Shown here: piece after piece, positions 15,140 through 36,939 of the stretch | How the letters are laid out: each line of letters opens with the position of its first letter | Numbering within the stretch: position 1 is the stretch's first letter | DNA from: an uncultured bacterium | Lineage (GTDB): Bacteria > Patescibacteriota > Patescibacteriia > Patescibacteriales > UBA12465 | Direction: 5' to 3' | Length of the DNA stretch: 64,000 nt | Assembly: GCA_942492765.1 (NCBI GenBank) | Contig: OW818634.1 | Coordinates: 473,159 to 537,158 of the forward strand | The notes under the pieces: generated by a model | What the model was told of the DNA's origin: nothing | Databases searched by the model: none | What the model saw: the letters and a program-made list of their open reading frames with translations, nothing else | Position numbers and translations under genes: made by a program

Positions 15140-15213
15140 GGGCCCTTAGCTCAGCTGGCTAGAGCACCTGCTTTGCAAGCAGGGGGTCATCGGTTCGAAT
15201 CCGATAGGGTCCA
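15140..15213 (+). tRNA. tRNA-Ala(UGC)
   Basis: Manual cloverleaf: GGGCCCT/AGGGTCC acceptor, GCTC..GAGC D-stem, CCTGC-TTTGCAA-GCAGG anticodon arm, ATCGG-TTCGAAT-CCGAT T-arm. CCA not encoded. Confidence 0.95.
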
Positions 15214-16702
15214 CATTACGAGATTTGGAGCATTCCAAGTCTCTTTTTGTTTCTAAGATTGGCGATAATTTCGGAGTTTGAAATGTGTAAAAATTAAAAG
15301 AGGGCTTTTCCTTAAAAATCGAACTCTGAACTTTAAGTTTAGTGGCATAATTGGCCTTTTGATAGAAGTCCGGCAGATCGCACATAAAATCAAAAACCTT
15401 ATCAAGATTCTTTTTAACGTCAAAACCATCGTCTTTACAATTCAAGAGTCTTTCCTGCTTATCAGACATCATAATTTTTACTTTATCCAATTCTTCCCTA
15501 AAATCCTCATCATCCAATAATTCCTTTTTCTTCATCTCGATTAATTTATCTTTCTCAGCTTTTAAATTTTCCAGTTGCGACTTGAGCGAACCAAAATTAC
15601 TATGTATCTCATTCTTTCTCTCGTCATAAACATCAATAATCGCTTTTTTAACGGCCTTGGCCATATAGGGCTGATAACTAATCTTTTTTAAACCAAGCGA
15701 AAAACTGTCTTCAACTTCTTTTTTAGTAATTGATTTTAACTGACCGCATTTTTTGTTATAGCATTTATAATAGGGATATTTAATGCCCATCTTACCGGTT
15801 GAAAAACAAGCAGTTAATGGACTACCACAATGCGGACAAACTACAAAATGCCTTAGAGGAAAACTTTCGTTAACTCGGCCCAAAGAAATGCAGTCGCCCT
15901 TATCAGCATTTCTAAATAATTTCTGACACTGCCAAAAAATACGCTCATCAATAAATTTTTCATGACTGCCGGCGTATTCTTGATTTTTAACTGTCATAAT
16001 CCCGATATAAAATTTTTCTCGGAGTAATTCGTGGAGCGTTTGCAAAGTTAACTCCCGGCCTTTATGCGTTCTAAAGCCTTTATCATTTAACATCTTTCTG
16101 ACTTGTTCAATTTGATATAAGCCGGTCGCAAACCGATCAAAAGCTAATTTAATTAAAGGCATACGTACCTTGTCGAAAATTATCATCGCTTTATTTTGAG
16201 CGTCTCGAGCGTTTAAATAGCCAAAGGGGGCTTTAAAACACCAAACGCCTTGTTTTATCCTTTCGTGCATACAAGAGGCGATTCTTTCGCTCCTAACATC
16301 ATTATCAAATTGAGCGACCGAGGCAACAATCGTTCCAACTAATCGACCGCTCGGCGTCTCGTCAACCGTTTCCGTCGTCGATATAAACTTAATTTTAAGT
16401 TTATAGAGCGACGCCAGGATGCCGGTATAGTCATTAACATTTCGAGACAGGCGGTCGATTTTATAAACAATTACACAATCAAGATTTTTAGCATTTTTTA
16501 CACAGTATTTTAATAATTCTTTTAAGCCCGGCCGTTCAATAGTTTTTGCCGACACGCCGTCATCGTGAAACAACTCGACAATTTCAATGTCGTGTTTAAG
16601 AGCATATTCCAAACAAGCGTTTTTCTGTTGTTCTAAACTAACACCGGATTGAGCCTGATCTTCAGTCGAAACCCGATAATAGATAATTCCTTTTTTAGTC
16701 AT
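15146..16702 (-). CDS. large serine recombinase (integrase)
   Basis: IIYYRVSTEDQ catalytic Ser, VYKIDRLSRN, recombinase domain, zinc ribbon CPHCGSPL...YYKCYNKKC, coiled-coil LENLKAEKDKLIEMKK. ATG at 16702 (track start 16813 is upstream junk). The last ~22 codons are antisense of tRNA-Ala. Confidence 0.9.
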   Translation of the reverse strand: MTKKGIIYYRVSTEDQAQSGVSLEQQKNACLEYALKHDIEIVELFHDDGVSAKTIERPGLKELLKYCVKNAKNLDCVIVYKIDRLSRNVNDYTGILASLYKLKIKFISTTETVDETPSGRLVGTIVASVAQFDNDVRSERIASCMHERIKQGVWCFKAPFGYLNARDAQNKAMIIFDKVRMPLIKLAFDRFATGLYQIEQVRKMLNDKGFRTHKGRELTLQTLHELLREKFYIGIMTVKNQEYAGSHEKFIDERIFWQCQKLFRNADKGDCISLGRVNESFPLRHFVVCPHCGSPLTACFSTGKMGIKYPYYKCYNKKCGQLKSITKKEVEDSFSLGLKKISYQPYMAKAVKKAIIDVYDERKNEIHSNFGSLKSQLENLKAEKDKLIEMKKKELLDDEDFREELDKVKIMMSDKQERLLNCKDDGFDVKKNLDKVFDFMCDLPDFYQKANYATKLKVQSSIFKEKPSFNFYTFQTPKLSPILETKRDLECSKSRNVDPIGFEPMTPCLQSRCSSQLS

Positions 16703-16739
16703 AAATTTAAAATTAATAAAAAGAGAGCAGTAAAACTGT

Positions 16740-16852
16740 TGGACACAATTAAGCAAAAACCTAATTGAAACAGCTACTGCTCCCTTTATCTCAAAACGAC
16801 ATCTCGCCGTCATTATGACTTAAGCAGATTTTCGCCATATTAATTGTGTCCA
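16740..16852. repeat. 13-bp perfect inverted repeat flanking an 87-bp segment upstream of the recombinase gene
   Basis: TGGACACAATTAA at 16740-16752 and its exact reverse complement TTAATTGTGTCCA at 16840-16852. Confidence 0.8.
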
Positions 16853-16893
16853 TTAAGGATATTAGCATAAATTTCTATTTTTACAAGATTAAG

Positions 16894-17046
16894 CTACATC
16901 AAGGTCGGATTAATATGGCGTTTATAATACTCAAAAGCCAAATAAGCTAATTGATACAAATCACGGCTAACTTCCATTAATTGAGCGTCGGTATATTCCG
17001 AAGATTTCGGGCCGACTAACTCTTTCATTTTTTCTAGTGTTAACAT
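16894..17046 (-). CDS. small hypothetical protein (50 aa), paralog of 17072-17221
   Basis: Own translation: MLTLEKMKELVGPKSSEYTDAQLMEVSRDLYQLAYLAFEYYKRHINPTLM. Aligns without gaps to the neighbouring small ORF. Below the ORF-track size cutoff. Confidence 0.4.
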   Translation of the reverse strand: MLTLEKMKELVGPKSSEYTDAQLMEVSRDLYQLAYLAFEYYKRHINPTLM

Positions 17047-17071
17047 ATATTTTATTGATTATTATTTATAT

Positions 17072-17221
17072 TTATTTAAATAAGTTAGGATTTTGCTGAT
17101 GGATATCAAAGGCGAGATGAGCAAAGGCATAAATATCGTGCCTTATTTCTTCAAGCTCTTCATCGGAAAACCGCTTAGCACGACCTCCCAGCAGTTTTCG
17201 CAGAGCCTCTAAGCTCATCAT
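17072..17221 (-). CDS. small hypothetical protein (49 aa), paralog of 16894-17046
   Basis: Own translation: MMSLEALRKLLGGRAKRFSDEELEEIRHDIYAFAHLAFDIHQQNPNLFK. Shared columns LE..L.G......D..L.E...D.Y..A.LAF. Confidence 0.4.
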   Translation of the reverse strand: MMSLEALRKLLGGRAKRFSDEELEEIRHDIYAFAHLAFDIHQQNPNLFK

Positions 17222-17276
17222 TCAATCCCGAAAAATGTCTGCAGAACATTTTAATTAGTGAATTAAAATGTCTTTG

Positions 17277-18131
17277 TTAAAAGACAATATCATCTATATT
17301 CAGTTCTTTATTATTCGTTATTTTTTCTGATTTATTATTTTTAATAATTTTATCTAATTCTTCGTTGTTTATTTCGTTTATTTTATAAATAGTTTCTTTA
17401 ATTTGACCTAAGCGGTCGCTGTAGAATTCCCGTTCTTTAATCAGATCTAAAGAATCGGGGCTAAAGAAGTCTAAGAAATTGTCCACCTCGTCCGGGTAGT
17501 CAATTATTTCCGGTTGATTAAGGTTTTTTGAGTAGAAAAATTTTCGTTTCCTAAAATATCTCGGATCGAACATTTCCTTGCTTAAATATTTCGAGATATA
17601 AATACCGATATTCTTGGCGTTATTAATAGGCCTAAAATTAATAAAACCATTTTTCCAATATTTGTCGGCAAACCACCGTTCGTATTCTTTCCGCTTATCG
17701 CCAGTTTCAAATTCCGGCAGAGGATAGTTAGAAACTAAATGATAATGAACTCTTTTTGACTGCGACTGAAATTCGGGAACGGCTAAATATTGAAAATCAT
17801 TTTGGCCATAACTGATCCGCTTAATAAAGCGGTCAAAATATTTATTGGCCGTTTTTAAATCCAATATTTCGTCTTTGAATGTCAGCGTCAAAAAAGTTTT
17901 GAGTTGCGGATTAGAATTAATCAGGCGAGTTATTTTCTGCCTGGCTCGCTTAACATTATCTTCTCTAATTTTAATCTGCTCCGATTCTAAGCGAATATGC
18001 TTAAATTCAGGGCGATGAATTTTCCGATACTGTGGCCAACCGACCCAATATGATTTCTCATACTCAAATATCTCAATAATATTTCCGGACTTGATGATTT
18101 TTTTCTTGACCTCATAAGGTAAACCACCCAT
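17277..18131 (-). CDS. HUH-superfamily rolling-circle replication initiator (Rep)
   Basis: Three ordered RCR motifs: FLTLTF (motif 1), VHYHLV (HUH, motif 2), IYISKYLSK (catalytic Tyr, motif 3). Confidence 0.75.
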   Translation of the reverse strand: MGGLPYEVKKKIIKSGNIIEIFEYEKSYWVGWPQYRKIHRPEFKHIRLESEQIKIREDNVKRARQKITRLINSNPQLKTFLTLTFKDEILDLKTANKYFDRFIKRISYGQNDFQYLAVPEFQSQSKRVHYHLVSNYPLPEFETGDKRKEYERWFADKYWKNGFINFRPINNAKNIGIYISKYLSKEMFDPRYFRKRKFFYSKNLNQPEIIDYPDEVDNFLDFFSPDSLDLIKEREFYSDRLGQIKETIYKINEINNEELDKIIKNNKSEKITNNKELNIDDIVF

Positions 18132-18148
18132 ACGCTTTTTATTATTGT

Positions 18149-18213
18149 CTTAGATTAATAACTTGCTTTTTCGACTCGTGTAATATGAGTGAATAATCAA
18201 GTTATTTATTAAG
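18149..18213. repeat. AT-rich imperfect inverted repeat, candidate double-strand origin with AACTTGAT word
   Basis: Arms CTTAGATTAATAACTTG (18149-18165) and CAAGTTATTTATTAAG (18198-18213). On the rep-coding strand the stem/loop junction reads AACTTGATT (plus 18195-18203). Confidence 0.4.
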
Positions 18214-18231
18214 TTTTTAAAGTACACGCTC

Positions 18232-18265
18232 GGGCGTTAGCAGAACGCCCTCGCTTTTGTTTTTT
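18232..18265 (+). terminator. terminator-like hairpin oriented antisense to the rep leader
   Basis: GGGCGTT-agcag-AACGCCC followed by TCGCTTTTGTTTTTT on the plus strand only. Confidence 0.45.
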
Positions 18266-18277
18266 ACGCCTATCCGG

Positions 18278-18342
18278 CCATTCCGTTTTTCGGCCCGGCT
18301 CCCCCACGGGGGATCCGCCGGGTCCGAAAAAACGGAAAATGG
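18278..18342. repeat. long GC-rich imperfect hairpin, candidate single-strand origin
   Basis: CCATT-CCG-TTTTT-CGG-CCCGGC-[TCCCCC ac GGGGGA]-tcc-GCCGGG-t-CCG-AAAAAA-CGG-aa-AATGG. A GC-rich island inside an AT-rich spacer. Confidence 0.6.
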
Positions 18343-18437
18343 CGAGAAAAGAGGGCAATATAAACAAAAAACCATAAGCTTAGTGTTTATGGTCTTATGA
18401 TAACGAATTAAGTTTTAGCAATATATCCCCGGTAAAA

Positions 18438-19112
18438 TTATTTTACTTGTCCGGTCAGTTTCTTGGAATAATCCAGGAGTCTTTTAATAATTTTAGCGAT
18501 ATCTTGATAACCGAGGGTTTTGTCGGGGTATTTTTCATTAATTATCGAGGCAATTTCCTTGTCTTTTTTGCCGTTTTGGCGTAACCGGTATGTTTCCAGG
18601 TCTCGGACGATATTAGTCCGTGGCGAGGCTTTTAGGGGCTTATGATCGGACAATCTAACGACTGTCCGTCTTATTTCATTCCAATTATTTTGCAGTTCCG
18701 TGATAGTCGTTTCCGGATTTAAGCGGATAACGGTAAATTGCTCTTTAGGGTTGGACGGATTTTTAATATTAAAAGGATAAAGTTCCTCGGGCAGACCAGA
18801 ATAGCTGATAATATCTCGTTGTTCAATAAAATCTTTTAATGAAGTCTGATAAGCGGAGGACAAATGATATTTTAATCGCAAGTCGGAAACAGCTTTATCA
18901 TAATTAACCGTAAACTGATGAACATCGTCGAGATTTTTTATTTTAATTGTCGTTTTTACAGATTCAGACAAATTAATATAGTTCTCCATCCCCTCCCCGG
19001 GAACATATAATTTAAGTATCGGCACATTTTCTCGGATGTATTGGATGTCAGCTCTAAAACCCTCATTCGTGGCATAAATTATATGGATATTTTGAGAAAA
19101 ATTAGAGGGCAT
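18438..19112 (-). CDS. hypothetical protein, third gene of the XRE-ImmA operon
   Basis: 224-aa ORF starting 4 nt after the ImmA stop. C-terminal segment RDLETYRLRQNGKKDKEIASIINEKY...IAKIIKRL looks HTH-like. No recognisable catalytic motif. Confidence 0.55.
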   Translation of the reverse strand: MPSNFSQNIHIIYATNEGFRADIQYIRENVPILKLYVPGEGMENYINLSESVKTTIKIKNLDDVHQFTVNYDKAVSDLRLKYHLSSAYQTSLKDFIEQRDIISYSGLPEELYPFNIKNPSNPKEQFTVIRLNPETTITELQNNWNEIRRTVVRLSDHKPLKASPRTNIVRDLETYRLRQNGKKDKEIASIINEKYPDKTLGYQDIAKIIKRLLDYSKKLTGQVK

Positions 19113-19116
19113 AATT

Positions 19117-19623
19117 TCAAGAAATATTTTTTATTAATTTCTCATTAATTACTTTGTGCCAAAGAGCTTCATCGCTAACAATGTACCTATTTGCTAATAA
19201 TTTCATATCCTTTTTACCATTTTCGATATCCTTCTTTAACATGCTTGTTGGCATCAATAACTCGGCGGCGAATTGATTTGCCTCAGTTTCTTCCGGCTTA
19301 TTACTATCTGAATCTAAATATACATGAGAAGTGGTGTGTCTGAGAATCATGTGACCTATTTCATGAGCTACTGTAAATCTTTGACGATGGATATTCTTAT
19401 TATCATTATAACCAATAACTGGTTTCCCGTTATTATCTATTTGAATACCATCAGTTTTATCACCTAAATCCCATTTATAAACTTCTAAGCTATATTTATT
19501 TTTTAAAAAAGGGATAATAGTGTTTAAAAGAATCGGCGGCTCTAAAATACCTAATTCTTCAATTAATTCCTTAGCTAGTTTTCTAGCTAAAATAATTCTT
19601 GGGGTAATTTTATCTTCAGGCAT
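19117..19623 (-). CDS. ImmA/IrrE family zinc metallopeptidase
   Basis: HEIGHMILRH (HExxH) followed by EANQFAAELLMP, the M78/COG2856 signature. 8-nt overlap with the upstream XRE gene. Confidence 0.85.
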   Translation of the reverse strand: MPEDKITPRIILARKLAKELIEELGILEPPILLNTIIPFLKNKYSLEVYKWDLGDKTDGIQIDNNGKPVIGYNDNKNIHRQRFTVAHEIGHMILRHTTSHVYLDSDSNKPEETEANQFAAELLMPTSMLKKDIENGKKDMKLLANRYIVSDEALWHKVINEKLIKNIS

Positions 19624-19948
19624 CTTTTTGTTTTTTTATAAAATCGACAAAGTCCATTATTTGTTTCTGATCTTTTGGCGTCAAATCTTTATCTGACCTC
19701 AAGGCCGCTCTAAAGCTAGGGGTTTCATCCTTACCTAAAAAAAACTTAATGTCCCTATGCAAGAACTCGGCAAACTTATCAAGGTCGTCGACGGAAACCT
19801 TTCTGTCCCCCGCCTCAATCAATGATATTGCTGTGGCCGACTCGAAGCCTACATGTTCGGCCAAATCTTTTTGAGAAATACCAGCCGCATCTCTTGCCTC
19901 TTTAATTCTAGCCCCTATTAATTTATATGGGTTTTCTTCATTTTTCAT
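19616..19948 (-). CDS. XRE-family helix-turn-helix transcriptional regulator
   Basis: IGARIKEARDAAGISQKDLAEHVGFESATAISLIEAGDRKVS is a typical HTH_3. Confidence 0.85.
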   Translation of the reverse strand: MKNEENPYKLIGARIKEARDAAGISQKDLAEHVGFESATAISLIEAGDRKVSVDDLDKFAEFLHRDIKFFLGKDETPSFRAALRSDKDLTPKDQKQIMDFVDFIKKQKDA

Positions 19949-19966
19949 ATTGATAAATTTTTATTT

Positions 19967-20005
19967 TCAAATTGACTTGACAAATCTATTTCAATTTGAT
20001 AATAT
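19967..20005 (+). promoter_or_regulatory. sigma70-like promoter bracketed by a 9-bp inverted repeat (candidate XRE operator)
   Basis: -35 TTGACA 19977-19982, 17-nt spacer, -10 TAATAT 20000-20005. TCAAATTGA (19967-19975) and TCAATTTGA (19991-19999) are exact reverse complements. Confidence 0.6.
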
Positions 20006-20073
20006 TATATTAGCAAAAAGAAAACCACTTGTAAAGGCCGATGGTTTTCCACTAATTAACCTAGAGCAAAAAT

Positions 20074-20400
20074 ATGATCTACCAATACAAAGGAAATTAC
20101 GTCTATAATAAACTCTCAATAACACAATATGCCAGCGATGGCATAGGGGTATATTATTGCGGCAGCAAAAACGCTGATGGTTCCCTGTTCCCCCTATACA
20201 TAGGCCGAGCAAAAGGAGAAAATGTCTCTATAAAAAGCAGACTTCTTGATCATTTTAGAGACGACAACTGGTCTGATGTTAGTATTTTTGGCTATCGTGA
20301 ATGTACCACGATGAAAGAAGCGGAAGATTTAGAAGCCGCAGAAATAGCAAAATTCAAGCCAAAATATAACACCCAGCTAAAAGCTATCAGATACTTCTAA
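20074..20400 (+). CDS. small stand-alone GIY-YIG nuclease-domain protein
   Basis: GVYYCG ... LYIGRA ... SRLLDH ... EAEDLEAAEI ... KPKYN reproduce the GIY, YIG, Arg, Glu and Asn positions of the fold. 108 aa. Confidence 0.6.
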   Translation: MIYQYKGNYVYNKLSITQYASDGIGVYYCGSKNADGSLFPLYIGRAKGENVSIKSRLLDHFRDDNWSDVSIFGYRECTTMKEAEDLEAAEIAKFKPKYNTQLKAIRYF

Positions 20401-20415
20401 AAGCTAACCAACTAA

Positions 20416-20446
20416 AGCCGTTCTATCTCACAGAGCGGCTTTTTTA
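20416..20446. terminator. bidirectional terminator between the GIY-YIG ORF and res
   Basis: AGCCGTTCT-atctcac-AGAGCGGCT followed by TTTTTT. Confidence 0.65.
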
Positions 20447-20450
20447 TTAT

Positions 20451-22685
20451 TTATAACTCCAAAAATTTCCAGTCTTTCAGATCGTTGGGGTTATATTCGT
20501 ATTTTAATCCATTATGATAACGCCAACTATTTTTTTCTTTTAGAACGATTCCACCGTAAAGTTTTTTGCCTTTTTTATTATGCTCGGCAATATATTTTGC
20601 CAAGCCCTCGGCTCGTGATTTAGCTGTTTCGGCGGTTAACCCACCTTTTGTATCAAATAAGCCGATGTGTCCGTCTTTTTGCATTATTACAAAATCAATA
20701 TAAAACGGTTTTTCAATTCCATGCTCTGTATGCGGTACCGCAAAATATGATCCGTCTTTTGTCCCATTCTTAAACCACCACTCAATAGATTTTGCTTTTT
20801 CTAAATATTGAATAAAATCGACTTCTAAATCGCTATCTTCTTCAAATAAACTAGCCGTCCCTATGCCCGATTTCTTTGTGTAATAAGCCTGTATTACAGA
20901 TTTTTTATAATCTTTTTTCGCAAAAGACAATGTATAATTTATTACTTTAGGAACATCCCATGACTCTTCATTTTTTACCAATTCATTTTTTCCTTTGCCA
21001 ACTTCTTCTTGATACATCTCTTTTGCGAGATTAATAACGTCAACCATTATTTGACGATTTTCCTCGGCAAGAACGGCCGCCTGAATCTTGGGCCATTCGT
21101 CTTCATTCCGAGAGGCCTCAAAAAATGAATAAATCGAACTTTTTATACGACCGATAGAGCGTTGTTCCGGTTCAAATGGGGCAAGATTATTTCGAGCAAA
21201 CATATCAAAAGCATTTTGCAATTCAACTTCATTTTTAGGTATATCAAGAGTGCCTTTTTTATCTATACTCGCCATTTCTTTATCGACATCCGCAATATGA
21301 CCACTCGCAATAAGGCTAGTTTTTAATATGCTGTGCTTAAATGAAAACTTTTCTTTGAGTTTTAACTTCTTGCCCGCCTCGATAAATAGAGGAGTAAAAT
21401 CAGACGAAAGACGAGTTTCTTCTCGAAAACGTTTTGAGTGATAAGAAACTAAACCGAGATTTTTATAATTTTTAATCCTATACCCCGTGTAAGTAGTAAT
21501 ATAATCACGAGATAAATCTTCTGCAACTTTTATATCTTGTAAACTTGTAAAAACATAACCGACATTTAAATCTTGATCTGAATAATGCCTTTGCTCCGGC
21601 ATACGCATAATACGTCCTAGTGTTTGGATAGAAAAAGTTATATTTTCCTCTCGCCATTGCCTAAATAAAACCAAGATTGTCGCCCGAGGACAATCCCAAC
21701 CAAGCGAGATTGCCTGTTTGAATATCATCACCTCAACTTCATTTTCATTCTTTTCTATATTGGCCAGATTTATTTTATTATCTTTATCTGAAAGATAAAT
21801 AGCGAGCCTGCCATTCTCCGTCGTATAACCAAATTTCTTAAGTAAAGCAAGAATCTCATCCTTTTTATCGACCACGCCCTGCATTGCATCCGGCAATTGG
21901 ATTAATAATAAAGGATTTACATCCGACCCCTCCGCCTCAAGATTTTTCCGTAATTCAAGTCGTTTTTTTATTGCACTTTCTAACACGAGTTCATCAGCAG
22001 ATTTATCGCTCTTCTTTTTATCTATTATATAATTCTCAAATCCGGGGTTGATAATAATTTCTTTCTTAATCATCTCCTCGTCTTTTACATCTTTAAGTTC
22101 CACTTCAACAATTCTATTAGCATTATTGAGTTGTGGGGTGGCGGAAACTTCTATTGTAATTTTAGGGCCAATATCCTGTATTAATTCTTTCGACTTCTCG
22201 CTATTAGCTGTATGATGGCTTTCATCTATAATGAGAAAAATTATTCTGCCCTCGTCTTTTGTGCGAGAAATAATATTTGAAAGATTATTATCCCTCTCGT
22301 TAGCACGAATATATAAATTGTCCTTTTTATTAATACTTGCCCAGTTTAAAAACAAAATCTCATTTTCACTAATTTTTCTATCATCTAAATCTTCAAAGTA
22401 AGAGCATTTTATACCTACGCCGTTTTGGTCGTAATATTTTTTAAGATTGTTTCGACTTTGGTCGTGTAATTTGTTGACAGCAATCCAAATAAACGAAAAC
22501 TTTTTACCATCTATACGAGAATCTACTAATCTTTTTAAAAATTCCGCCATCATCAGCGTTTTGCCGGAACCGGTCGGTGCTTTAAAAATTAATACCTTGT
22601 CACCGTCTGTATCTAAAAGTCTATTGGTCTCACGCTTGAGATCAACGACGGCGTTCTCTTGATAATTTTTAAATTCAAATATCAT
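20451..22685 (-). CDS. res: Type III restriction enzyme Res subunit (helicase + PD-(D/E)xK nuclease)
   Basis: SF2 motifs FKAPTGSGKTLMMA and LIIDESHH. C-terminal PFYIDFVIMQKDGHIGLFDTKGG is nuclease-like. ATG at 22685 preferred; the track start 22739 is TTG and overlaps the upstream ORF. Confidence 0.8.
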   Translation of the reverse strand: MIFEFKNYQENAVVDLKRETNRLLDTDGDKVLIFKAPTGSGKTLMMAEFLKRLVDSRIDGKKFSFIWIAVNKLHDQSRNNLKKYYDQNGVGIKCSYFEDLDDRKISENEILFLNWASINKKDNLYIRANERDNNLSNIISRTKDEGRIIFLIIDESHHTANSEKSKELIQDIGPKITIEVSATPQLNNANRIVEVELKDVKDEEMIKKEIIINPGFENYIIDKKKSDKSADELVLESAIKKRLELRKNLEAEGSDVNPLLLIQLPDAMQGVVDKKDEILALLKKFGYTTENGRLAIYLSDKDNKINLANIEKNENEVEVMIFKQAISLGWDCPRATILVLFRQWREENITFSIQTLGRIMRMPEQRHYSDQDLNVGYVFTSLQDIKVAEDLSRDYITTYTGYRIKNYKNLGLVSYHSKRFREETRLSSDFTPLFIEAGKKLKLKEKFSFKHSILKTSLIASGHIADVDKEMASIDKKGTLDIPKNEVELQNAFDMFARNNLAPFEPEQRSIGRIKSSIYSFFEASRNEDEWPKIQAAVLAEENRQIMVDVINLAKEMYQEEVGKGKNELVKNEESWDVPKVINYTLSFAKKDYKKSVIQAYYTKKSGIGTASLFEEDSDLEVDFIQYLEKAKSIEWWFKNGTKDGSYFAVPHTEHGIEKPFYIDFVIMQKDGHIGLFDTKGGLTAETAKSRAEGLAKYIAEHNKKGKKLYGGIVLKEKNSWRYHNGLKYEYNPNDLKDWKFLEL

Positions 22686-22704
22686 ATATTCTATTAATTT
22701 TTCT

Positions 22705-23442
22705 TTAAAATACTGTTTTTGATATCTTTTCAACTCCAATAATTAGCTCTTCAATATCTTCTTGTTTCGGTTCAACTTTTTTATCATGGTCACATAAGTT
22801 TCGCAAATCAGCTAATCTCTGAATATAACGCCAATCTTTAACTTCAATAATATCAGCATCTTTAATGGACTGATTATAATCATTTATCGTTGAATTCTTT
22901 TTTAAAATTTTGACATTATGATTATCACAAACCTCTGATAAGTGTTTTTCTAAAACAACGCCAGCTACGGCTCCGGCTCCACGAGCAAAACCCTTTTTAT
23001 TTAACTCCTTAGCCACTTCTAATTCTGAATCAAATAAATCAGCTTGCATTAACTGTTTTATATCAAAAAGGGAACTTTCAAATCTCTTTTGACACGACTT
23101 AATTATTGTTAATTGATTAACAAAAAATGATCTTGCAAAATCAACTTGTTTTGCTGGCTTATAATCAAACTCAACCATCACTCCCTCACTCCTTGGTGGT
23201 GTATAAATTAGAGCCTTTTTCAAAGCATCATTCTTTTTATTTTCATAATAATTTTTAAAATCATCTAATCTATCTGATAAAACTACTTTTACCAAATATA
23301 ATGCCTCCGAATACCAAATTTCATATTCTTCTCGAAATTTCAATAAATTATTATTATCTCCCTTTAGAATACCCAACAAAACATCTCCTTCTTGTACGAG
23401 TTTTTCTATATCATTCTTATATCTTTCTAAATTAAAAACCAT
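22705..23442 (-). CDS. hypothetical protein with C-terminal HEPN-like Rx4H motif, inserted between mod and res
   Basis: 245-aa ORF, 5 nt after the mod stop and 19 nt before the res ATG. ...GAGAVAGVVLEKHLSEV... then LADLRNLCDHD (R214-x4-H219, nt 22803-22786). Confidence 0.55.
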   Translation of the reverse strand: MVFNLERYKNDIEKLVQEGDVLLGILKGDNNNLLKFREEYEIWYSEALYLVKVVLSDRLDDFKNYYENKKNDALKKALIYTPPRSEGVMVEFDYKPAKQVDFARSFFVNQLTIIKSCQKRFESSLFDIKQLMQADLFDSELEVAKELNKKGFARGAGAVAGVVLEKHLSEVCDNHNVKILKKNSTINDYNQSIKDADIIEVKDWRYIQRLADLRNLCDHDKKVEPKQEDIEELIIGVEKISKTVF

Positions 23443-23447
23443 AATAA

Positions 23448-25181
23448 TTACTTAAAAATTTCCCTGTACACTTTCAATATCACCTCCGGAATTGCACATA
23501 ATGTCACTTTTTTCTTTATATCAGCAAACTTTTTCGCATGAGGGTCGTCTCCCATTGAAAAAACATAAGTGTTAAAATGCCCGTCAATATTTTTTATTAC
23601 TTTTTTATAATCATCTATTGCTTCCTCATAAAAAATAACACCAACGTATTTATCTGTATTCTTAAAAATTTTATATTCCGGAGTTTCTTTTATAGGTTCA
23701 AAAGCGTTCTCTAAAATACAGAGCATATCAGTAGATTCTTTAACTAGTTTTCTCTTATTTTTATCTGTTGGTTCTGCTTCAACAAAATCTGTTTTATAAT
23801 ATTTAAGATTTCCTCCCAACCCGTCTATCTTTTCATTCTTCTGATTTTTATAACCGGTAATTATTTTCTTTACACGTGGATAACAAATTTCTGTACAAAT
23901 TTCACCCTGATTATCAGTACAAAGAATAAAATTAAATTTACTTTTATTATCTTTATTGATTTCTAACACAGCTTGTCCTGTTGTGCCTGACCCAGCAAAA
24001 AAATCAAGAATAGTGGCATTTTTATTTAAATCAACTGAATTAATTAGTCTTTTAATAATCTCCGTCGGCTTGGAATACTTAAATACGTGATGATCAAAAA
24101 TATCTTTTATAATAACGGAACCTTCGCCTGTTTTTATATCTGTTATTATATTCTTATAAGGGGTGCCTCTATCCAACTTATTTCCTTCATTATCAACAAA
24201 TAAATAATTCTTATAATAAACTGCCCAACCGCTTTTTTTAGTTTTAGATTTTTTAAAGACTATATAACCATTCTTAATACCCCACTGAACTTTTTCCTTG
24301 CCCCATTTCCATGTCCAACCATCATTAATAAACTTTGCTCTTCCGTTTGGATAACTAATGCTCCCATCTGGACAACTTATTGGATAATTTAATGAGTCAC
24401 TATATCTTAAGCCACCTCTATCGAGATTATCTACATAATGAGGACCCCTATCGGCGAAATAATCATCTCGTAATTTATAACGATTTACATCATACCCCTC
24501 AACATTCTTATTAAATTTCGTATTATTTATATTTCGTGCATAGACTAAAATATATTCTGTTACCGTGTCTATTGTTCTTGCATCGCTTGACCCAGTTTTA
24601 CTATGCCAAATAATATTTGCAATAAAATTTTCTGGTCCGAAAATCTCATCACAAAGCATTTTTAAAGGAGCTTGCTCATTATCATCAATACTAATAAAAA
24701 TTACCCCGCTCGCTTTCAAAAGATTTTTTGAAAGCTTCAAACGCTTTTCCATAAATGAAAGCCATTTACTGTGCCTAAAACTGTCCTCTTTATCAACAAA
24801 TTTATCATTATAGATAAAATCATTGTTGCCGGTATTATACGGCGGATCAATATATATTAAATCAATTGCCTCTTGGTGTGTAAAATTTAAAACAGCGAGC
24901 GAATGATAATTATCGCCCTCAATCAAAAAATTCACGAGCTTTGTTTTATCCGATTCAATAGCCTTATTCTTCACCTCTTTTAAAATAGGAAATGGCCGAC
25001 CCGCCATTTCATTTGGGAACATCTCATTTGGAGTACGAGCGTCTGGATTGACTAAAATATCTATTTTTTCTTCCGGCAAATCTCTGTGCCAAACAAGCCC
25101 ATATGTTGTGCTTTTAATTTTAATAATCTCTTTTATTAATTCTTCATTCGACCACCCTTCGTAATTCGTCTTTTTTGACAT
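23448..25181 (-). CDS. mod: Type III-style DNA methyltransferase (Mod; N6A/N4C beta class)
   Basis: LIYIDPPYNTG (motif IV) precedes FFAGSGTTGQAV (motif I), with the TRD between them. ATG at 25181 (MSKKTNYEGW...); track start 25244 is an upstream extension. Confidence 0.85.
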   Translation of the reverse strand: MSKKTNYEGWSNEELIKEIIKIKSTTYGLVWHRDLPEEKIDILVNPDARTPNEMFPNEMAGRPFPILKEVKNKAIESDKTKLVNFLIEGDNYHSLAVLNFTHQEAIDLIYIDPPYNTGNNDFIYNDKFVDKEDSFRHSKWLSFMEKRLKLSKNLLKASGVIFISIDDNEQAPLKMLCDEIFGPENFIANIIWHSKTGSSDARTIDTVTEYILVYARNINNTKFNKNVEGYDVNRYKLRDDYFADRGPHYVDNLDRGGLRYSDSLNYPISCPDGSISYPNGRAKFINDGWTWKWGKEKVQWGIKNGYIVFKKSKTKKSGWAVYYKNYLFVDNEGNKLDRGTPYKNIITDIKTGEGSVIIKDIFDHHVFKYSKPTEIIKRLINSVDLNKNATILDFFAGSGTTGQAVLEINKDNKSKFNFILCTDNQGEICTEICYPRVKKIITGYKNQKNEKIDGLGGNLKYYKTDFVEAEPTDKNKRKLVKESTDMLCILENAFEPIKETPEYKIFKNTDKYVGVIFYEEAIDDYKKVIKNIDGHFNTYVFSMGDDPHAKKFADIKKKVTLCAIPEVILKVYREIFK

Positions 25182-25232
25182 AAAAAAAAATAATAAATCC
25201 CCCGTCAAATCAACGGCAATAAATATATTCTT

Positions 25233-25293
25233 ATTATAACACAAAAAATCTGTGACGAAAACGGTTGTCTTTAAGCCAATTTTGTGTTATAAT
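25233..25293. promoter_or_regulatory. mirrored pair of divergent extended -10 promoters (14-bp perfect inverted repeat)
   Basis: TTTTGTGTTATAAT occurs on the plus strand at 25280-25293 (with -35 TTGTCT 25265-25270, 17-nt spacer). Its exact reverse complement is at 25233-25246, facing mod. Confidence 0.65.
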
Positions 25294-25337
25294 TAAAGTA
25301 GTTTTAGATAAAAATATGATAAAAAAATAATAATTAT

Positions 25338-26225
25338 ATGGGAATTATCTCTTTGTTTATTTCTATAAAAACCGTAACGGTCGTCATATTTCTTCTAATT
25401 CTTTTTGCTTTAATAATAAAATTTCTATTTTCAAAAAAATCGGAAAGCAATATTATTAAAATTATCGGCGGATTAGTAGTCTTTATCGTTGCCATAATTT
25501 CAGACAATGGCTGGGTATTTTGGACCTCACTTTTTATTGGGGGGTTAATTATTGCCAGTGAAGACTTTATGAAATTTTTAGTTGCCATATTAAAAACACG
25601 TGGTGATAAAATTTCCGATACAGTTGCCTCTTTTGGAGCCACCAGAGAAGAGCCGGCGACACCGCAGGAAGACGATGAAAAAAAGAACGAAGAATTTAAG
25701 GACATTGTTCCCGAAAAAGAAATAACTGATCACGCTAACCGAGAAGATAGTCATCGAGATTGGATAAAAAAAACAAGAATATCAGAGGAACTTGTTTTAA
25801 ATTATTATAAAGAAATATTCAATAGAGTCATAGAAAAACAAATTAAAATTACAGACGAAAACTCTAATTTTATAATTGCTGACGGAATTTTAAAAAATGA
25901 TATTGGCAAAATTATAACCATTTTTGAAATTAAATTTTTAAGAAAATTCGACCCATTCATGATTAATATTAATATAAGAAGAACTCTTGAAAGAATGAGA
26001 TTTATTGTACCAAGTGATGTAATAATATCTCTAAATATTGTTTTTGAGGGCGATGTCGACGAACGAAGCTTGGATAGAATTTTTAATAGACTTACATACA
26101 AAAATTTTCAATTAATTTTATTTAAACTTAAAGATGAGAAAATAAATAAAATTGCCCAAAATGTAATGCGTAACGATAGTGTCCTAAAGCATTCTTTAAG
26201 CAATACAAATAAGTCATTTTATTAA
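25338..26225 (+). CDS. membrane-anchored protein with C-terminal PD-(D/E)xK-like motif
   Basis: Three N-terminal hydrophobic helices, an acidic linker, then NFIIADGIL-x11-IFEIKF (D182, E197, K199; nt 25881-25934). No other recognisable domain. Confidence 0.5.
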   Translation: MGIISLFISIKTVTVVIFLLILFALIIKFLFSKKSESNIIKIIGGLVVFIVAIISDNGWVFWTSLFIGGLIIASEDFMKFLVAILKTRGDKISDTVASFGATREEPATPQEDDEKKNEEFKDIVPEKEITDHANREDSHRDWIKKTRISEELVLNYYKEIFNRVIEKQIKITDENSNFIIADGILKNDIGKIITIFEIKFLRKFDPFMININIRRTLERMRFIVPSDVIISLNIVFEGDVDERSLDRIFNRLTYKNFQLILFKLKDEKINKIAQNVMRNDSVLKHSLSNTNKSFY

Positions 26226-26323
26226 AAACTCCTAACAACGCCCCAAAAACTCCGCCCAATACTTAATTTCCTCAATAATTTCGTCTAAAGAGTTGGAAAT
26301 CCGTTTTTTAACGACCACAAAAT

Positions 26324-26356
26324 AAAAAACCTCCAAATTTCTTTGGAGGTTTTTTT
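26324..26356. terminator. bidirectional rho-independent terminator
   Basis: AAAAAA-CCTCCAAA-tttc-TTTGGAGG-TTTTTTT. Confidence 0.8.
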
Positions 26357-26376: not shown

Positions 26377-27462
26377 TCAACAAAAGTCCTCAGGACGCAA
26401 ACCGGGATTAAAGATATTTATTTCTCGATATGCCGGAATAACCGATAATGTTCTCATGAAACTGAAGCCTTCGAGCTTGTTCAGGAGGCTGGGGATTATC
26501 GGCCGCCTTGATTCCGCTATTTTAGCTATCTTCTCTAAATCCTTGTTAGTCATAAGAGCGATGGAAAGGAGCGGATCGTGGTTGATGACATGACGGAAAT
26601 TTACCAAAAAATCATAAGCTAGTTCTAAATTCCGAACATCCCGCTGACAATCTTCATCGTCATTTACCTTTTTATAAAAATGGGGGTATTCCCATTGATA
26701 CAAAGCCTCGAAATTTTTAGCGATTTCAGACTTGCAGTAAGACACGGCCCCTTTTTCGCTGCTCTCTTTAATCAAAGAAAATAGGCAATTATCCCAACGT
26801 TCTTGCAAACTATTCCCTAGAAAGAAAAATTCCTTAGGCAATTGTTCGGGGGTGAAAAAACCGCGCCGCAACGCATCTTCGAAATCCGATAAAATAGCGA
26901 TCTTATCGATAATGCTGATGAGCCGATATTCTTGAATCTTGCCAAGATCGTTATCCGGATCCCAATGATGGGAACGATGCTGATATATCCCCTGCAGCGT
27001 TTCCCAGGATAGATTGAGATCATAGATATTTCGGAGAAGGACGACACTCATGACCTCATGGCCGAATTCCCGGCCGGACTTTTTAGTAATGAATCCTTCC
27101 CCAATATGAGCACCAGCGGGATAACCCATATCGTGGCCGAAATATATCGCTCTGGCCAACCCGGTATTAAGTCCCAAGATGCTGGCGGCTTGGGTAATCA
27201 GGGCAAGGCCTTCGATAGTGTGAGATTGTCTGTTTCTTGCCAACGGATCATTGCAGTCAAAGACCTGTTTTTTCCATCTCAGATCTCCAAAAGCCGGGCA
27301 AGAAAATATCTTTATCTCATCTAAAATGAACGGATCAATGACTTGGTTATATAAATATCTAGGACCTCCGTTCGGATAACTCCGCCCTAGGCTGTCCTCC
27401 GACTTGAACGCCTTCCCGGCTAATGAGTCGAGGTAAGGCCGAAAATCGATTTTCTGTTTCAT
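26377..27462 (-). CDS. HD-domain dNTP triphosphohydrolase (dGTPase)-like protein
   Basis: NRQSHTIEGLALITQAASILGLN...YFGHDMGYPAGAHIGE...FGHEVMSV...LSWETLQGIYQH parallels the dGTPase pattern RxxHSLEV...HDxGHxPFGHxGE...FEHNxQS...GIxKH. Confidence 0.65.
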   Translation of the reverse strand: MKQKIDFRPYLDSLAGKAFKSEDSLGRSYPNGGPRYLYNQVIDPFILDEIKIFSCPAFGDLRWKKQVFDCNDPLARNRQSHTIEGLALITQAASILGLNTGLARAIYFGHDMGYPAGAHIGEGFITKKSGREFGHEVMSVVLLRNIYDLNLSWETLQGIYQHRSHHWDPDNDLGKIQEYRLISIIDKIAILSDFEDALRRGFFTPEQLPKEFFFLGNSLQERWDNCLFSLIKESSEKGAVSYCKSEIAKNFEALYQWEYPHFYKKVNDDEDCQRDVRNLELAYDFLVNFRHVINHDPLLSIALMTNKDLEKIAKIAESRRPIIPSLLNKLEGFSFMRTLSVIPAYREINIFNPGLRPEDFC

Positions 27463-36200: not shown

Positions 36201-36228
36201 TTGATAAAAAATGAACCCATGGTATAAT
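36201..36228 (+). promoter_or_regulatory. sigma70-like promoter for the LAGLIDADG-like gene
   Basis: -35 TTGATA 36201-36206, 16-nt spacer, -10 TATAAT 36223-36228. It lies inside a 13-bp-stem hairpin (AATGAACCCATGG...CCGTGGGTTCATT). Confidence 0.5.
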
Positions 36229-36255
36229 TATAATATTACCGTGGGTTCATTTTTT

Positions 36256-36939
36256 ATGCGTACCGATAAAAAAATCGTCATTAAATTAAGAAAACAAGGC
36301 CAATCTTATAACCAGATAAGCGCTGCTTTAAAAGTGCCAAAAAGCACCCTGAGTAACTGGCTGAAAGATATCCCCCTCTCTGCCGAGGCACAGGCCAAGA
36401 TCTTGGCGCGAACCAACGCTAACGCGATCGTGAAACTGATAGCCAGAAACAAACGGCAGACGGCAATCTCTCAAGCCAGGCATCAGATTATCCGCCAAGA
36501 GGCGAAAAAAGAAGCTAAAAAATTACTCACTGATCCGTTATTCTTGGCGGGCGTATCTTTATACTGGGCGGAAGGTTATAAACAAGGCGCCCATGGCAGC
36601 AAATGGAAAAGCATCGATTTCGCCAATTCCGACCCGGAAATGATCAGATTAATGATGAAATTCTTTATCAAATTCCTCGGTCTTAAAAAGACGGAAATAC
36701 GTATCCAATTGATGCTCCATAATCCGAAAGATTCCCTTAAAACTGTAGATTTTTGGCATAATCTTACCGGCATCCCGAAAGCCAATTTTATCAAGACTTG
36801 CCATGTAATCAGCCGCGCCAGTTTACAAAAAAGAAATAAGAAGTTAGAATATGGGACGGTACATATAAGGATAAATGATGTTAGTCGTTTCTTCCGCCTA
36901 ATCGGCTGGATAGACGGCTTGCAAACAAAATTCACTTAA
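36256..36939 (+). CDS. free-standing HTH + LAGLIDADG-like homing endonuclease homolog
   Basis: N-terminal HTH SYNQISAALKVPKSTLSNWLK, then DPLFLAGVSLYWAEGYK (LAGLIDADG-type helix with acidic residue) and FANSDPEMIRLMMKFF. ATG at 36256 preferred. The stop codon abuts tRNA-Pro. Confidence 0.55.
   Translation: MRTDKKIVIKLRKQGQSYNQISAALKVPKSTLSNWLKDIPLSAEAQAKILARTNANAIVKLIARNKRQTAISQARHQIIRQEAKKEAKKLLTDPLFLAGVSLYWAEGYKQGAHGSKWKSIDFANSDPEMIRLMMKFFIKFLGLKKTEIRIQLMLHNPKDSLKTVDFWHNLTGIPKANFIKTCHVISRASLQKRNKKLEYGTVHIRINDVSRFFRLIGWIDGLQTKFT

Follow-up and report, generated by a model that had tools for sequence, protein, structure and literature searches.

An exchangeable cargo gene for a predicted membrane-anchored PD-(D/E)xK-fold protein behind the mirrored promoter region of a Type III restriction-modification island

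Organization of the locus

Within a stretch of 64,000 nucleotides (nt) of contig OW818634.1 from an uncultured bacterium, hereafter called the window, we analyzed an open reading frame (ORF) at 25338-26225 on the plus strand. It encodes a 295-amino-acid (aa) protein (P0001) with a predicted membrane anchor and a predicted PD-(D/E)xK fold, and it was analyzed together with the promoter region that separates it from a divergent Type III restriction-modification (R-M) operon (20451-25181, minus strand) comprising mod, a 245-aa gene and res. Operon and ORF belong to a low-GC island of ~11 kb (15140-26335), in which the guanine-plus-cytosine (GC) content is ~0.30-0.37 compared to ~0.45-0.50 in the flanks; one GC step falls at a tRNA-Ala gene and the other near 26300. 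Starting from tRNA-Ala, the genes are ordered as follows: a large serine recombinase gene, a gene for a rolling-circle Rep protein, a 224-aa gene, a capP/capH-like pair, a GIY-YIG-like gene, res, the 245-aa gene and mod. Beyond mod the promoter region is followed by a cargo slot, and ORF 25338-26225 is the final gene of the island.

Mirror-image extended -10 boxes face the R-M operon and the ORF

The cargo-facing extended -10 box, TTTTGTGTTATAAT, is located at 25280-25293 on the plus strand, with TG at 25285-25286 and TATAAT at 25288-25293. Its exact reverse complement, ATTATAACACAAAA as written on the plus strand, is located at 25233-25246 and forms the mod-facing box on the minus strand, with TG at 25241-25240 and TATAAT at 25238-25233. 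The two copies are separated by a gap of 33 nt. This pair had been described in a first-pass annotation of the window, and the coordinates given there were exact. Apart from the pair, no perfect copy of TTTTGTGTTATAAT was found in the 64 kb window. When the 156-nt intergenic region was subjected to 20,000 dinucleotide-preserving shuffles, 0.04% of them contained perfect inverted repeats of 14 nt or longer whose spacer did not exceed 80 nt, which corresponds to a chance probability of ~4e-4. The repeat extends imperfectly to arms of 27 nt with 81% complementarity.

TGnTATAAT is a strong extended -10 consensus, and the TRTG type is familiar from Gram-positive promoters. Ten of the 14 positions of the 14-mer are of the extended -10 type TRTGnTATAAT, and part of the non-randomness of the repeat is explained by the fact that any two copies of the consensus pointing away from each other necessarily make up an inverted repeat. 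Throughout the window TGnTATAAT is found at 8 sites versus 3.0 expected, the majority of them intergenic and upstream of genes, and this enrichment and placement indicate that the motif is probably in use by this organism.

For the cargo-facing box a putative -35 hexamer, TTGTCT, is present at 25265-25270 (plus strand) with a 17-nt spacer, so that 10 of 12 positions plus the TG match the consensus. The putative -35 hexamer of the mod-facing box, TTTTCG at 25261-25256 (minus strand), is weak. Transcription towards the cargo slot is predicted to start near 25300, and 44 nt separate the end of the box from the ORF start codon at 25338. In the opposite direction the predicted start lies near 25226, ~45 nt before the mod start codon at 25181, and the distance from box end to ATG is 51 nt. 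Oriented and spaced suitably with respect to the genes, the paired boxes are good candidates for two separate promoters placed back to back. For neither mod nor ORF 25338-26225 was a well-placed Shine-Dalgarno sequence found.

Divergent promoters with mirror-symmetric -10 sequences have been described as symmetry-based bidirectional promoters, which are enriched in horizontally acquired DNA (Warman et al., 10.1101/2020.01.31.928960). In these promoters the -10 elements overlap and the start sites are 7-25 bp (base pairs) apart, mostly 18 (Warman et al., 10.1101/2020.01.31.928960). The candidate promoters analyzed here resemble them in their divergent, mirror-symmetric -10 sequences; with box centres 47 bp apart and predicted starts ~74 bp apart, an assignment to the overlapping type was rejected.

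In the predicted 5' leader of mod a small hairpin, CCGTTGATTTGACGG, was noted at 25202-25216 (minus strand), followed by GGGGGA and a U-rich run. It could act as an attenuator or as a structure affecting translation.

Related islands carry unrelated genes between the same flanks

A search via homologues of the 245-aa gene yielded three related versions of the R-M island. The first, L066, shares 97.5% identity with window positions 25331-20452, a segment that runs from the promoter region through mod and the middle gene to res. For the 224-aa gene, Rep and the recombinase the identity amounts to 92%, and L066 is devoid of the capH/capP/GIY-YIG block. In its slot an unrelated 113-aa gene replaces the ORF. 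The second version, represented by L021 and L022, is ~85-88% identical, with a host polA flank of 85% identity, and its slot is occupied by a 145-aa and a 144-aa gene. The third, L023 and L024, resides at the same chromosomal site, between a LysM-M23 peptidase gene and ddl/polA; here the slot contains a 98-aa and a 125-aa gene, which are co-directional with mod, and the mirrored promoter is missing. No homology was found among the cargo genes of the different islands.

On the side of the slot, similarity ends at 25331 in the comparison with L066 and at 25329 in that with L021. From the breakpoints against L066, L021 and L023, the cargo cassette was delimited to 25332-26243 (plus strand), comprising 6 nt, ORF 25338-26225 and 18 nt. 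With just 6 nt ahead of the ATG the cassette cannot accommodate a promoter and would have to rely on the outward promoter of the backbone. Since related islands carry unrelated genes between the same flanks, the ORF is a promoterless cassette in a variable cargo slot. The cargo-facing leader (25294-25331, plus strand) is conserved and includes a vestigial mini-ORF of 4 codons at 25316-25330 (MIKK*). The same ATG at 25316 starts the 145-aa cargo gene in L021 (MIKKISK...) and opens a 3-codon remnant in L066.

The far side of the slot is formed by a terminal element of ~86 nt with a ~75-nt core (26244-26329, extending to 26335, minus strand), which is 88-95% identical in L066, L021 and L023. It is conserved in all four island versions, and more so than the neighbouring genes are. 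A minus-strand ORF at 26232-26336 runs over the element and encodes ...KKRISNSLDEIIEEIKYWAEFL..., and its variation is codon-like (KYW, or KRW with CGG or AGA). The element may therefore, as judged from this codon-like variation, be the start of a small peptide with ...KKRISNSLDEIIEEIK-x-W, or it may be a recombinase-binding end. An attC-like fold was not detected, as the element folds no better than its shuffles (z -1.0 and 0.1). Next to it, between the cargo gene and a convergent HD-domain gene, a hairpin with a perfect 14-bp stem is flanked by A- and T-runs (26324-26355) and is taken for a bidirectional terminator. In the related islands this place is also occupied by a hairpin, each time with a different sequence.

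Within the promoter region, none of the 28 positions of the 14-mer arms differ between the window and L066, compared to 13 of 122 in the remaining intergenic region; against L021 the numbers are 1 of 28 and 25 of 122. The mod-facing box is invariant in L066, L021 and L022, and the cargo-facing box is identical in L066. Conservation also includes the initial ~38 nt of the cargo leader, both in L066 and in L021/L022. This is moderate evidence that the two boxes are under selection within the island backbone, whatever gene lies downstream. With suitable distances and with boxes conserved in L066 and L021, the earlier assignment of one box to the R-M operon and of the other to ORF 25338-26225 is borne out.

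The centre of the spacer (25256-25269), which reads CGAAAACGGTTGTC on the plus and GACAACCGTTTTCG on the minus strand, is invariant in all four aligned islands (window, L066, L021 and L022), and the adjoining spacer positions are variable. It would correspond either to the two putative -35 hexamers back to back or to an operator. In the latter case the inverted repeat and its invariant centre would mainly be a site for a trans-acting regulator of both units, with arm identity reflecting operator symmetry and with the 224-aa product or a host factor as candidate regulators. Such a site would account for an identity that runs 4 positions past the TRTGnTATAAT consensus, and weakly to 27 nt, and for a 14-nt centre that is invariant between variable flanks; in addition, R-M systems often need timed expression. 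However, a centre-to-centre distance of 47 bp between half-sites is long for a simple dimer, conserved regulator genes are lacking beside the site, and the conserved centre coincides with the expected positions of both -35 hexamers. An operator as the main role of the repeat is considered rather unlikely. A capH/capP-like repressor was rejected as regulator, because the pair is missing from L066, L021 and L023 and because no motif of the repeat recurs upstream of the pair itself. The first-pass annotation had concluded from the mirrored boxes that operon and ORF are co-regulated. The common promoter region indeed makes co-expression of the two units likely in this one genome, but does not attest to a conserved partnership; no shared regulator site was identified.

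Beyond these islands, the exact spacer pattern of the promoter region gave no match in JGI metagenomes. A looser arm-gap-arm pattern was found at 39 loci in a public scan, mostly as long perfect hairpins, and in those loci no homologues of island genes were detected except for one weak partial Mod match in L042. Scans of IMG/VR matched neither the promoter region nor the end element, and Rfam gave no match in the intergenic regions.

Concerning the contents of the L021 slot (L021 3445-4319, minus strand), the 145-aa cargo protein displays the sequence GVDIKA...FFIEAKG, in which a D...ExK motif was read by eye. It has 635 homologues, some of which are fused to a HARE-HTH domain (PF05066). The 144-aa protein encoded downstream of it has an N-terminal transmembrane (TM) helix. 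The pair could be a split counterpart of a membrane anchor plus a nuclease-like domain. No homology of the L021 cargo to the C-terminal domain of ORF 25338-26225 was found, profile comparison included.

The ORF joins a three-helix anchor to a PD-(D/E)xK-type fold

Both hydropathy and an AlphaFold2 model place three hydrophobic helices, one long and two short, at residues ~10-31, 42-55 and 60-74 of the 295-aa protein. The membrane region (residues 10-74; 25365-25559, plus strand) therefore consists of TM1 and a short TM2-TM3 hairpin. It is followed by an acidic, partly helical linker (residues 96-140) with 14 D/E versus 7 K/R. In 39 aligned homologues loop 1 and the segment after TM3 contain ~3 K+R on average, compared to ~0.3-0.5 for the N-terminus and for loop 2. 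By the positive-inside rule we infer a topology with the N-terminus outside and the C-terminus inside, so that the C-terminal domain would be cytoplasmic. Residues G44, G45, F66 and G68-G-L-I-I-A-S-E75 are invariant in 39/39 homologues, as is F77.

The C-terminal domain (residues ~132-275; 25731-26162, plus strand) was assigned to the PD-(D/E)xK fold by AlphaFold2, Foldseek and conservation. The model of the full-length protein reached a mean predicted local distance difference test (pLDDT) value of 87.8, that of the C-terminal domain alone 90.9, and the predicted template modelling score (pTM) was 0.84. According to DSSP analysis of the models, the domain contains H132-161, E165-172, E178-186, E192-201, H206-220 and E229-236 (H, helix; E, strand), i.e. 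an alpha-beta-beta-beta-alpha-beta core. Residue E150 is located on helix 132-161, D182 on strand 178-186, E197 and K199 on strand 192-201, and E237 just past strand 229-236. Among the 39 homologues E150 is conserved in 34, D182 in all 39, G183 in 36, E197 in 36 and K199 in 31 (Q in 5), and an acidic residue is present at 237 in 30.

Almost all top Foldseek matches were PD-(D/E)xK nucleases. In the PDB they comprised Can2, Card1, YaeQ, BsmI, the R2 endonuclease domain, DrdV, a bunyavirus cap-snatching endonuclease, Cas4, NucS/EndoMS, XisH, EcoO109I, MGME1 and Exo5, and in BFVD a Holliday-junction resolvase as well as proteins of the YqaJ-like, Mrr-like and MmcB-like types. The domain shares its core topology with minimal PD-(D/E)xK domains of the Hjc/Mrr/NucS type, including the E on helix 1, the D on strand 2 and the ExK on strand 3. 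It departs from the superfamily in its fusion to a three-helix anchor that has an invariant motif of its own, and the structural scores reach the level of the fold only.

With the single sequence, the 39 aligned members and a C-domain profile, no credible match was found in Pfam, NCBIfam, PADLOC, PHROG or PDB sequence profiles. Weak matches to DUF7649 were obtained for 7 members (best E 0.014). These results support the placement of the C-terminal domain in the PD-(D/E)xK superfamily at the level of fold and motif, outside any described family and with no close structural relative, and we infer that it is an active metal-dependent nuclease. The features that had been proposed from the letters of the ORF, i.e. 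three TM helices, an acidic linker, the residues D182, E197 and K199 and a restriction-endonuclease-like core outside known families, were all recovered. A likeness to Shedu nucleases (SduA, DUF4263) had been suggested as well. Like Shedu, the ORF is a single gene with a PD-(D/E)xK-type domain behind a variable N-terminal module, and its relatives also swap the TM module. However, the domain is much smaller, DUF4263 was found neither in the ORF nor in the 39 aligned homologues, and there was no PADLOC match to Shedu, so that the comparison fails at the sequence level.

The ORF family is rare and situated at island edges

A word-indexed search identified 61 clusters of homologues. An exhaustive profile search gave 595 representatives at E <= 1e-3, 101 of them at E <= 1e-30; counted as 50%-identity representatives, the family amounts to about 100 close ones and about 600 in all. 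Distant relatives share only the linker and the C-terminal domain, which are found behind other membrane anchors, e.g. of the 'FPIISEISxFG' type. The source names of the homologues point to Parcubacteria, Saccharibacteria and other Patescibacteria, and so far the family has been seen only in genomes of the Patescibacteria type (candidate phyla radiation). A search of 185,579 species-representative genomes turned up no more than 6 loci.

At every locus the GC content of the homologue was lower than that of its flanks. In L004 the homologue is arranged head to head with a large serine recombinase gene, in an element that also has Rep and a C5-methyltransferase. In L018 it lies immediately upstream of a tyrosine integrase gene, in a block with Schlafen/AlbA_2 and IceA-like genes, and in L007 it adjoins AIPR, DpnI/DpnII and SocA/Panacea genes in an island of defence-like character. 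In 4 of 11 loci (L008, L012, L015 and L020) the homologue is found 4-92 nt downstream of a same-strand tRNA gene (Trp, Glu, Gln and Glu, respectively), for which a binomial p of ~1.6e-3 was calculated at a generous background of 5%. The family is thus a rare accessory gene that moves horizontally and resides at island edges, and belongs neither to the R-M system nor to the core genome. A phage, plasmid or viral origin of the ORF was rejected, as no match was obtained in GenBank phages, PLSDB or IMG/VR.

Some of the tRNA-adjacent homologues are lone low-GC genes amid housekeeping genes. These could represent decayed islands or could be co-transcribed with the tRNA.

The first-pass annotation had proposed that the protein is an additional effector or sensor of the Type III system. 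In this explanation the ORF would be a dedicated part of the R-M system and would be co-regulated with it through the mirrored promoters. Its adjacency to the operon speaks for this, as do the identical -10 boxes of the divergent promoter region that both units share and their joint transfer in one island. Also the L021 slot has a small D...ExK-like protein followed by a TM-helix protein, so that nuclease-like cargo may recur there. However, tblastn searches with all island proteins detected neither Mod nor Res near the homologues in any of 10 distinct loci, the near-identical L066 has an unrelated gene in the slot and L023 has others, and the L021 cargo is without profile similarity to the C-terminal domain of the ORF. 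Moreover, the rarity of the ORF family contrasts with the very wide distribution of the mod/245-aa/res cassette, for whose middle gene more than 3,500 homologues were counted. Co-conservation with the R-M operon, on which the annotation had made its proposal depend in advance, is absent. The proposal has thus already been largely refuted, and we hold it to be very improbable. A mirrored promoter region in common with an R-M operon does not imply that the neighbouring gene is a member of the R-M system.

A chromosomal housekeeping role, for example in DNA processing at the uptake machinery, with a position beside the R-M island that came about by chance, was likewise considered. Several homologues are located between gyrB, dnaX, genes for penicillin-binding proteins (PBP) and tRNA genes, as would be expected of such a role. 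It is hardly compatible with only 6 matches among the species-representative genomes, with a gene GC content that is always below that of the flanks, with the adjacency to integrase or tRNA genes, and with an ORF that lies inside a low-GC island and is absent from close relatives, including L023 at the same chromosomal site. We regard this role as far-fetched.

A proposed membrane-tethered nuclease as accessory cargo of the island

The explanation that we favour, with a confidence slightly above even, is that the region is the variable end of an R-M island, in which an outward promoter serves a swappable slot and the slot carries an accessory membrane-tethered nuclease for defence or exclusion. 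The ~11 kb integrative island would sit at tRNA-Ala in a Patescibacteria-type genome. One backbone promoter would drive mod, the middle gene and res, and the other would point outward into the cargo slot. If RNA polymerase initiates at both predicted boxes, the cassette would be expressed alongside mod/res and yet independently of them. The three-helix anchor with its invariant GGLIIASExF motif would place the minimal PD-(D/E)xK-fold domain at the cytoplasmic face of the membrane, where it might cut nucleic acid in a defence or exclusion reaction that benefits the island or its host and is independent of the R-M enzymes. This specific function as a defence nuclease is the weakest step of the whole picture. 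It was chosen because of the company of the gene, its position in the cargo slot and a general rule on such slots, as cargo slots of this sort generally carry defence and addiction genes.

Several observations weigh against this picture. The strongest conservation is found in the membrane hairpin rather than in the nuclease motif, and the membrane domain may carry the main function. K199 is substituted in 8 of 39 members. The Foldseek scores are weak, with a best E of 5e-4 in the PDB and 1.5e-4 in BFVD and TM-scores (template modelling) of ~0.3-0.5, and a comparison with PDB sequence profiles revealed no link at the sequence level to any solved nuclease. With regard to the promoters, the cargo-facing box reads TATAAA in L021 and L022, not TATAAT, and the mod-facing -35 hexamer has just 3 of 6 consensus matches. 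Several homologues stand as single genes among housekeeping genes. Finally, searches of GenBank phages, PLSDB plasmids, IMG/VR and PADLOC did not recover any homologue, and the argument for a defence role is drawn entirely from genomic context.

If the membrane domain is the key activity, the protein might be an abortive-infection or addiction toxin whose invariant TM2-TM3 hairpin perturbs the membrane, with the PD-(D/E)xK-like domain as a nucleic-acid sensor or regulator instead of an executing nuclease. This would agree with the concentration of invariant residues in the hairpin (G44, G45, F66 and G68-E75 in 39/39), with a K199 that is not strictly conserved and with relatives that keep the C-terminal domain and exchange the TM module. 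Against it, E150, D182 and E197 are retained in 87-100% of the members, as expected for a working metal site, ExQ motif variants are active in some restriction enzymes, e.g. BglII, and no pore-forming family was matched. A membrane toxin seems quite unlikely.

The island resembles the hotspots of integrative elements such as P2/P4-type prophages, pipolins and elements of the 'tycheposon' type, with which it shares an integrase/replication backbone, integration at a tRNA gene and an exchangeable slot. Cargo and defence platforms of integrative elements are described in PMC11551731 and 10.1101/2020.12.28.424599. The backbone analyzed here differs in its composition, as it consists of a large serine recombinase, a rolling-circle Rep and a Type III R-M system in Patescibacteria, and in a slot that is served by a conserved outward promoter mirroring the R-M promoter. 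A promoterless single-ORF cassette, with 6 nt before and 18 nt after the ORF, interchangeable contents and a position downstream of a platform promoter also recalls integron cassettes under Pc. An integron cassette was nevertheless rejected, because the recombinase is of the large serine type and not an IntI-type tyrosine recombinase, because an attC-like fold is missing and because there is one slot and no array.

A bolder extension, speculative and decidedly unlikely in our estimate, is that the proteins are 'gatekeeper' nucleases, attached to the inner face of the membrane and docked by the invariant hairpin at the route of DNA entry, either a competence channel or a site of phage injection, and that the slot is a cassette platform of a non-integron kind. 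If this were true, the gatekeepers would destroy incoming DNA and thereby shield the island from phages, rival elements and curing by transformation, and the fixed outward promoter together with the conserved end element would constitute a non-integron expression platform for interchangeable promoterless cassettes.

The analysis defines an unannotated family in which a minimal restriction-endonuclease-like domain is joined to membrane anchors. It does so for bacteria about whose mobile elements and defences little is known. The compact integrative R-M island with its precisely bounded slot also offers a handle for further accessory or defence genes in Patescibacteria, which could be collected by reading the sequence that the promoter region and the ~86-nt end element enclose. 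The protein adds, in our view, a new branch with a membrane anchor to a known nuclease fold, and we rate the cargo platform as new yet conceptually familiar.

Further features of the island and the window

At the left end of the island, the final ~22 codons of the large serine recombinase gene (15146-16813) overlap the tRNA-Ala gene (15140-15214), the two genes being encoded on opposite strands. From this arrangement it appears that part of the tRNA-Ala gene is contributed by the end of the island. Direct repeats of at least 10 nt common to both island ends were not found. This is in keeping with a serine recombinase, although the right boundary can then be given only approximately (~26330-26355). 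To the right, the host HD-domain gene (26377-27462, minus strand) is convergent with the ORF and is followed by ddl and polA.

The gene for the rolling-circle Rep (17277-18131) is followed by the 224-aa gene (18438-19112, minus strand), which has no family match. In the related islands L066, L021 and L023 the 224-aa gene comes directly after res, and its product is a candidate backbone regulator or accessory factor. In the window a block at 19117-20400 is found between the two, comprising a capP-like M78 peptidase gene (19117-19623), a capH-like helix-turn-helix (HTH) gene (19616-19948) and a divergent 108-aa GIY-YIG/UvrC-like gene (20074-20400). L066, L021 and L023 all lack this block, which has the look of a second cargo module acquired on a separate occasion, composed of a small nuclease gene and regulators of a type for which responses to DNA damage have been reported.

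Within the R-M operon (minus strand), mod (23448-25181) was assigned a start at ATG 25181, giving a protein of 577 aa, the length also called in L066 and L025. For res (20451-22739) the probable start is ATG 22685, giving 744 aa as in relatives. The 245-aa gene (22705-23442) is conserved between mod and res and has homologues across phyla, with no match in Pfam or NCBIfam. In 22 homologues R213, N214, L215, C216 and H218 are invariant and D217 nearly so, forming the Rx4H motif R213-N-L-C-D-H218; E164 and H166 are invariant as well. From the motif, the label 'HEPN' is plausible for this gene. The middle part of mod (24024-24619) is without DNA similarity to the L021 and L023 copies, and both of its flanks are similar. 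It is probably an exchanged target-recognition domain, which would give different methylation and restriction specificities to otherwise similar islands.

Outside the island, a perfect 16-nt inverted repeat, ATAAAAAATGAACCCA, with a 22-nt spacer was observed at 36204-36257. The repeat brackets an extended -10 box, TGGTATAAT (36220-36228), and the whole looks like a promoter with an operator.

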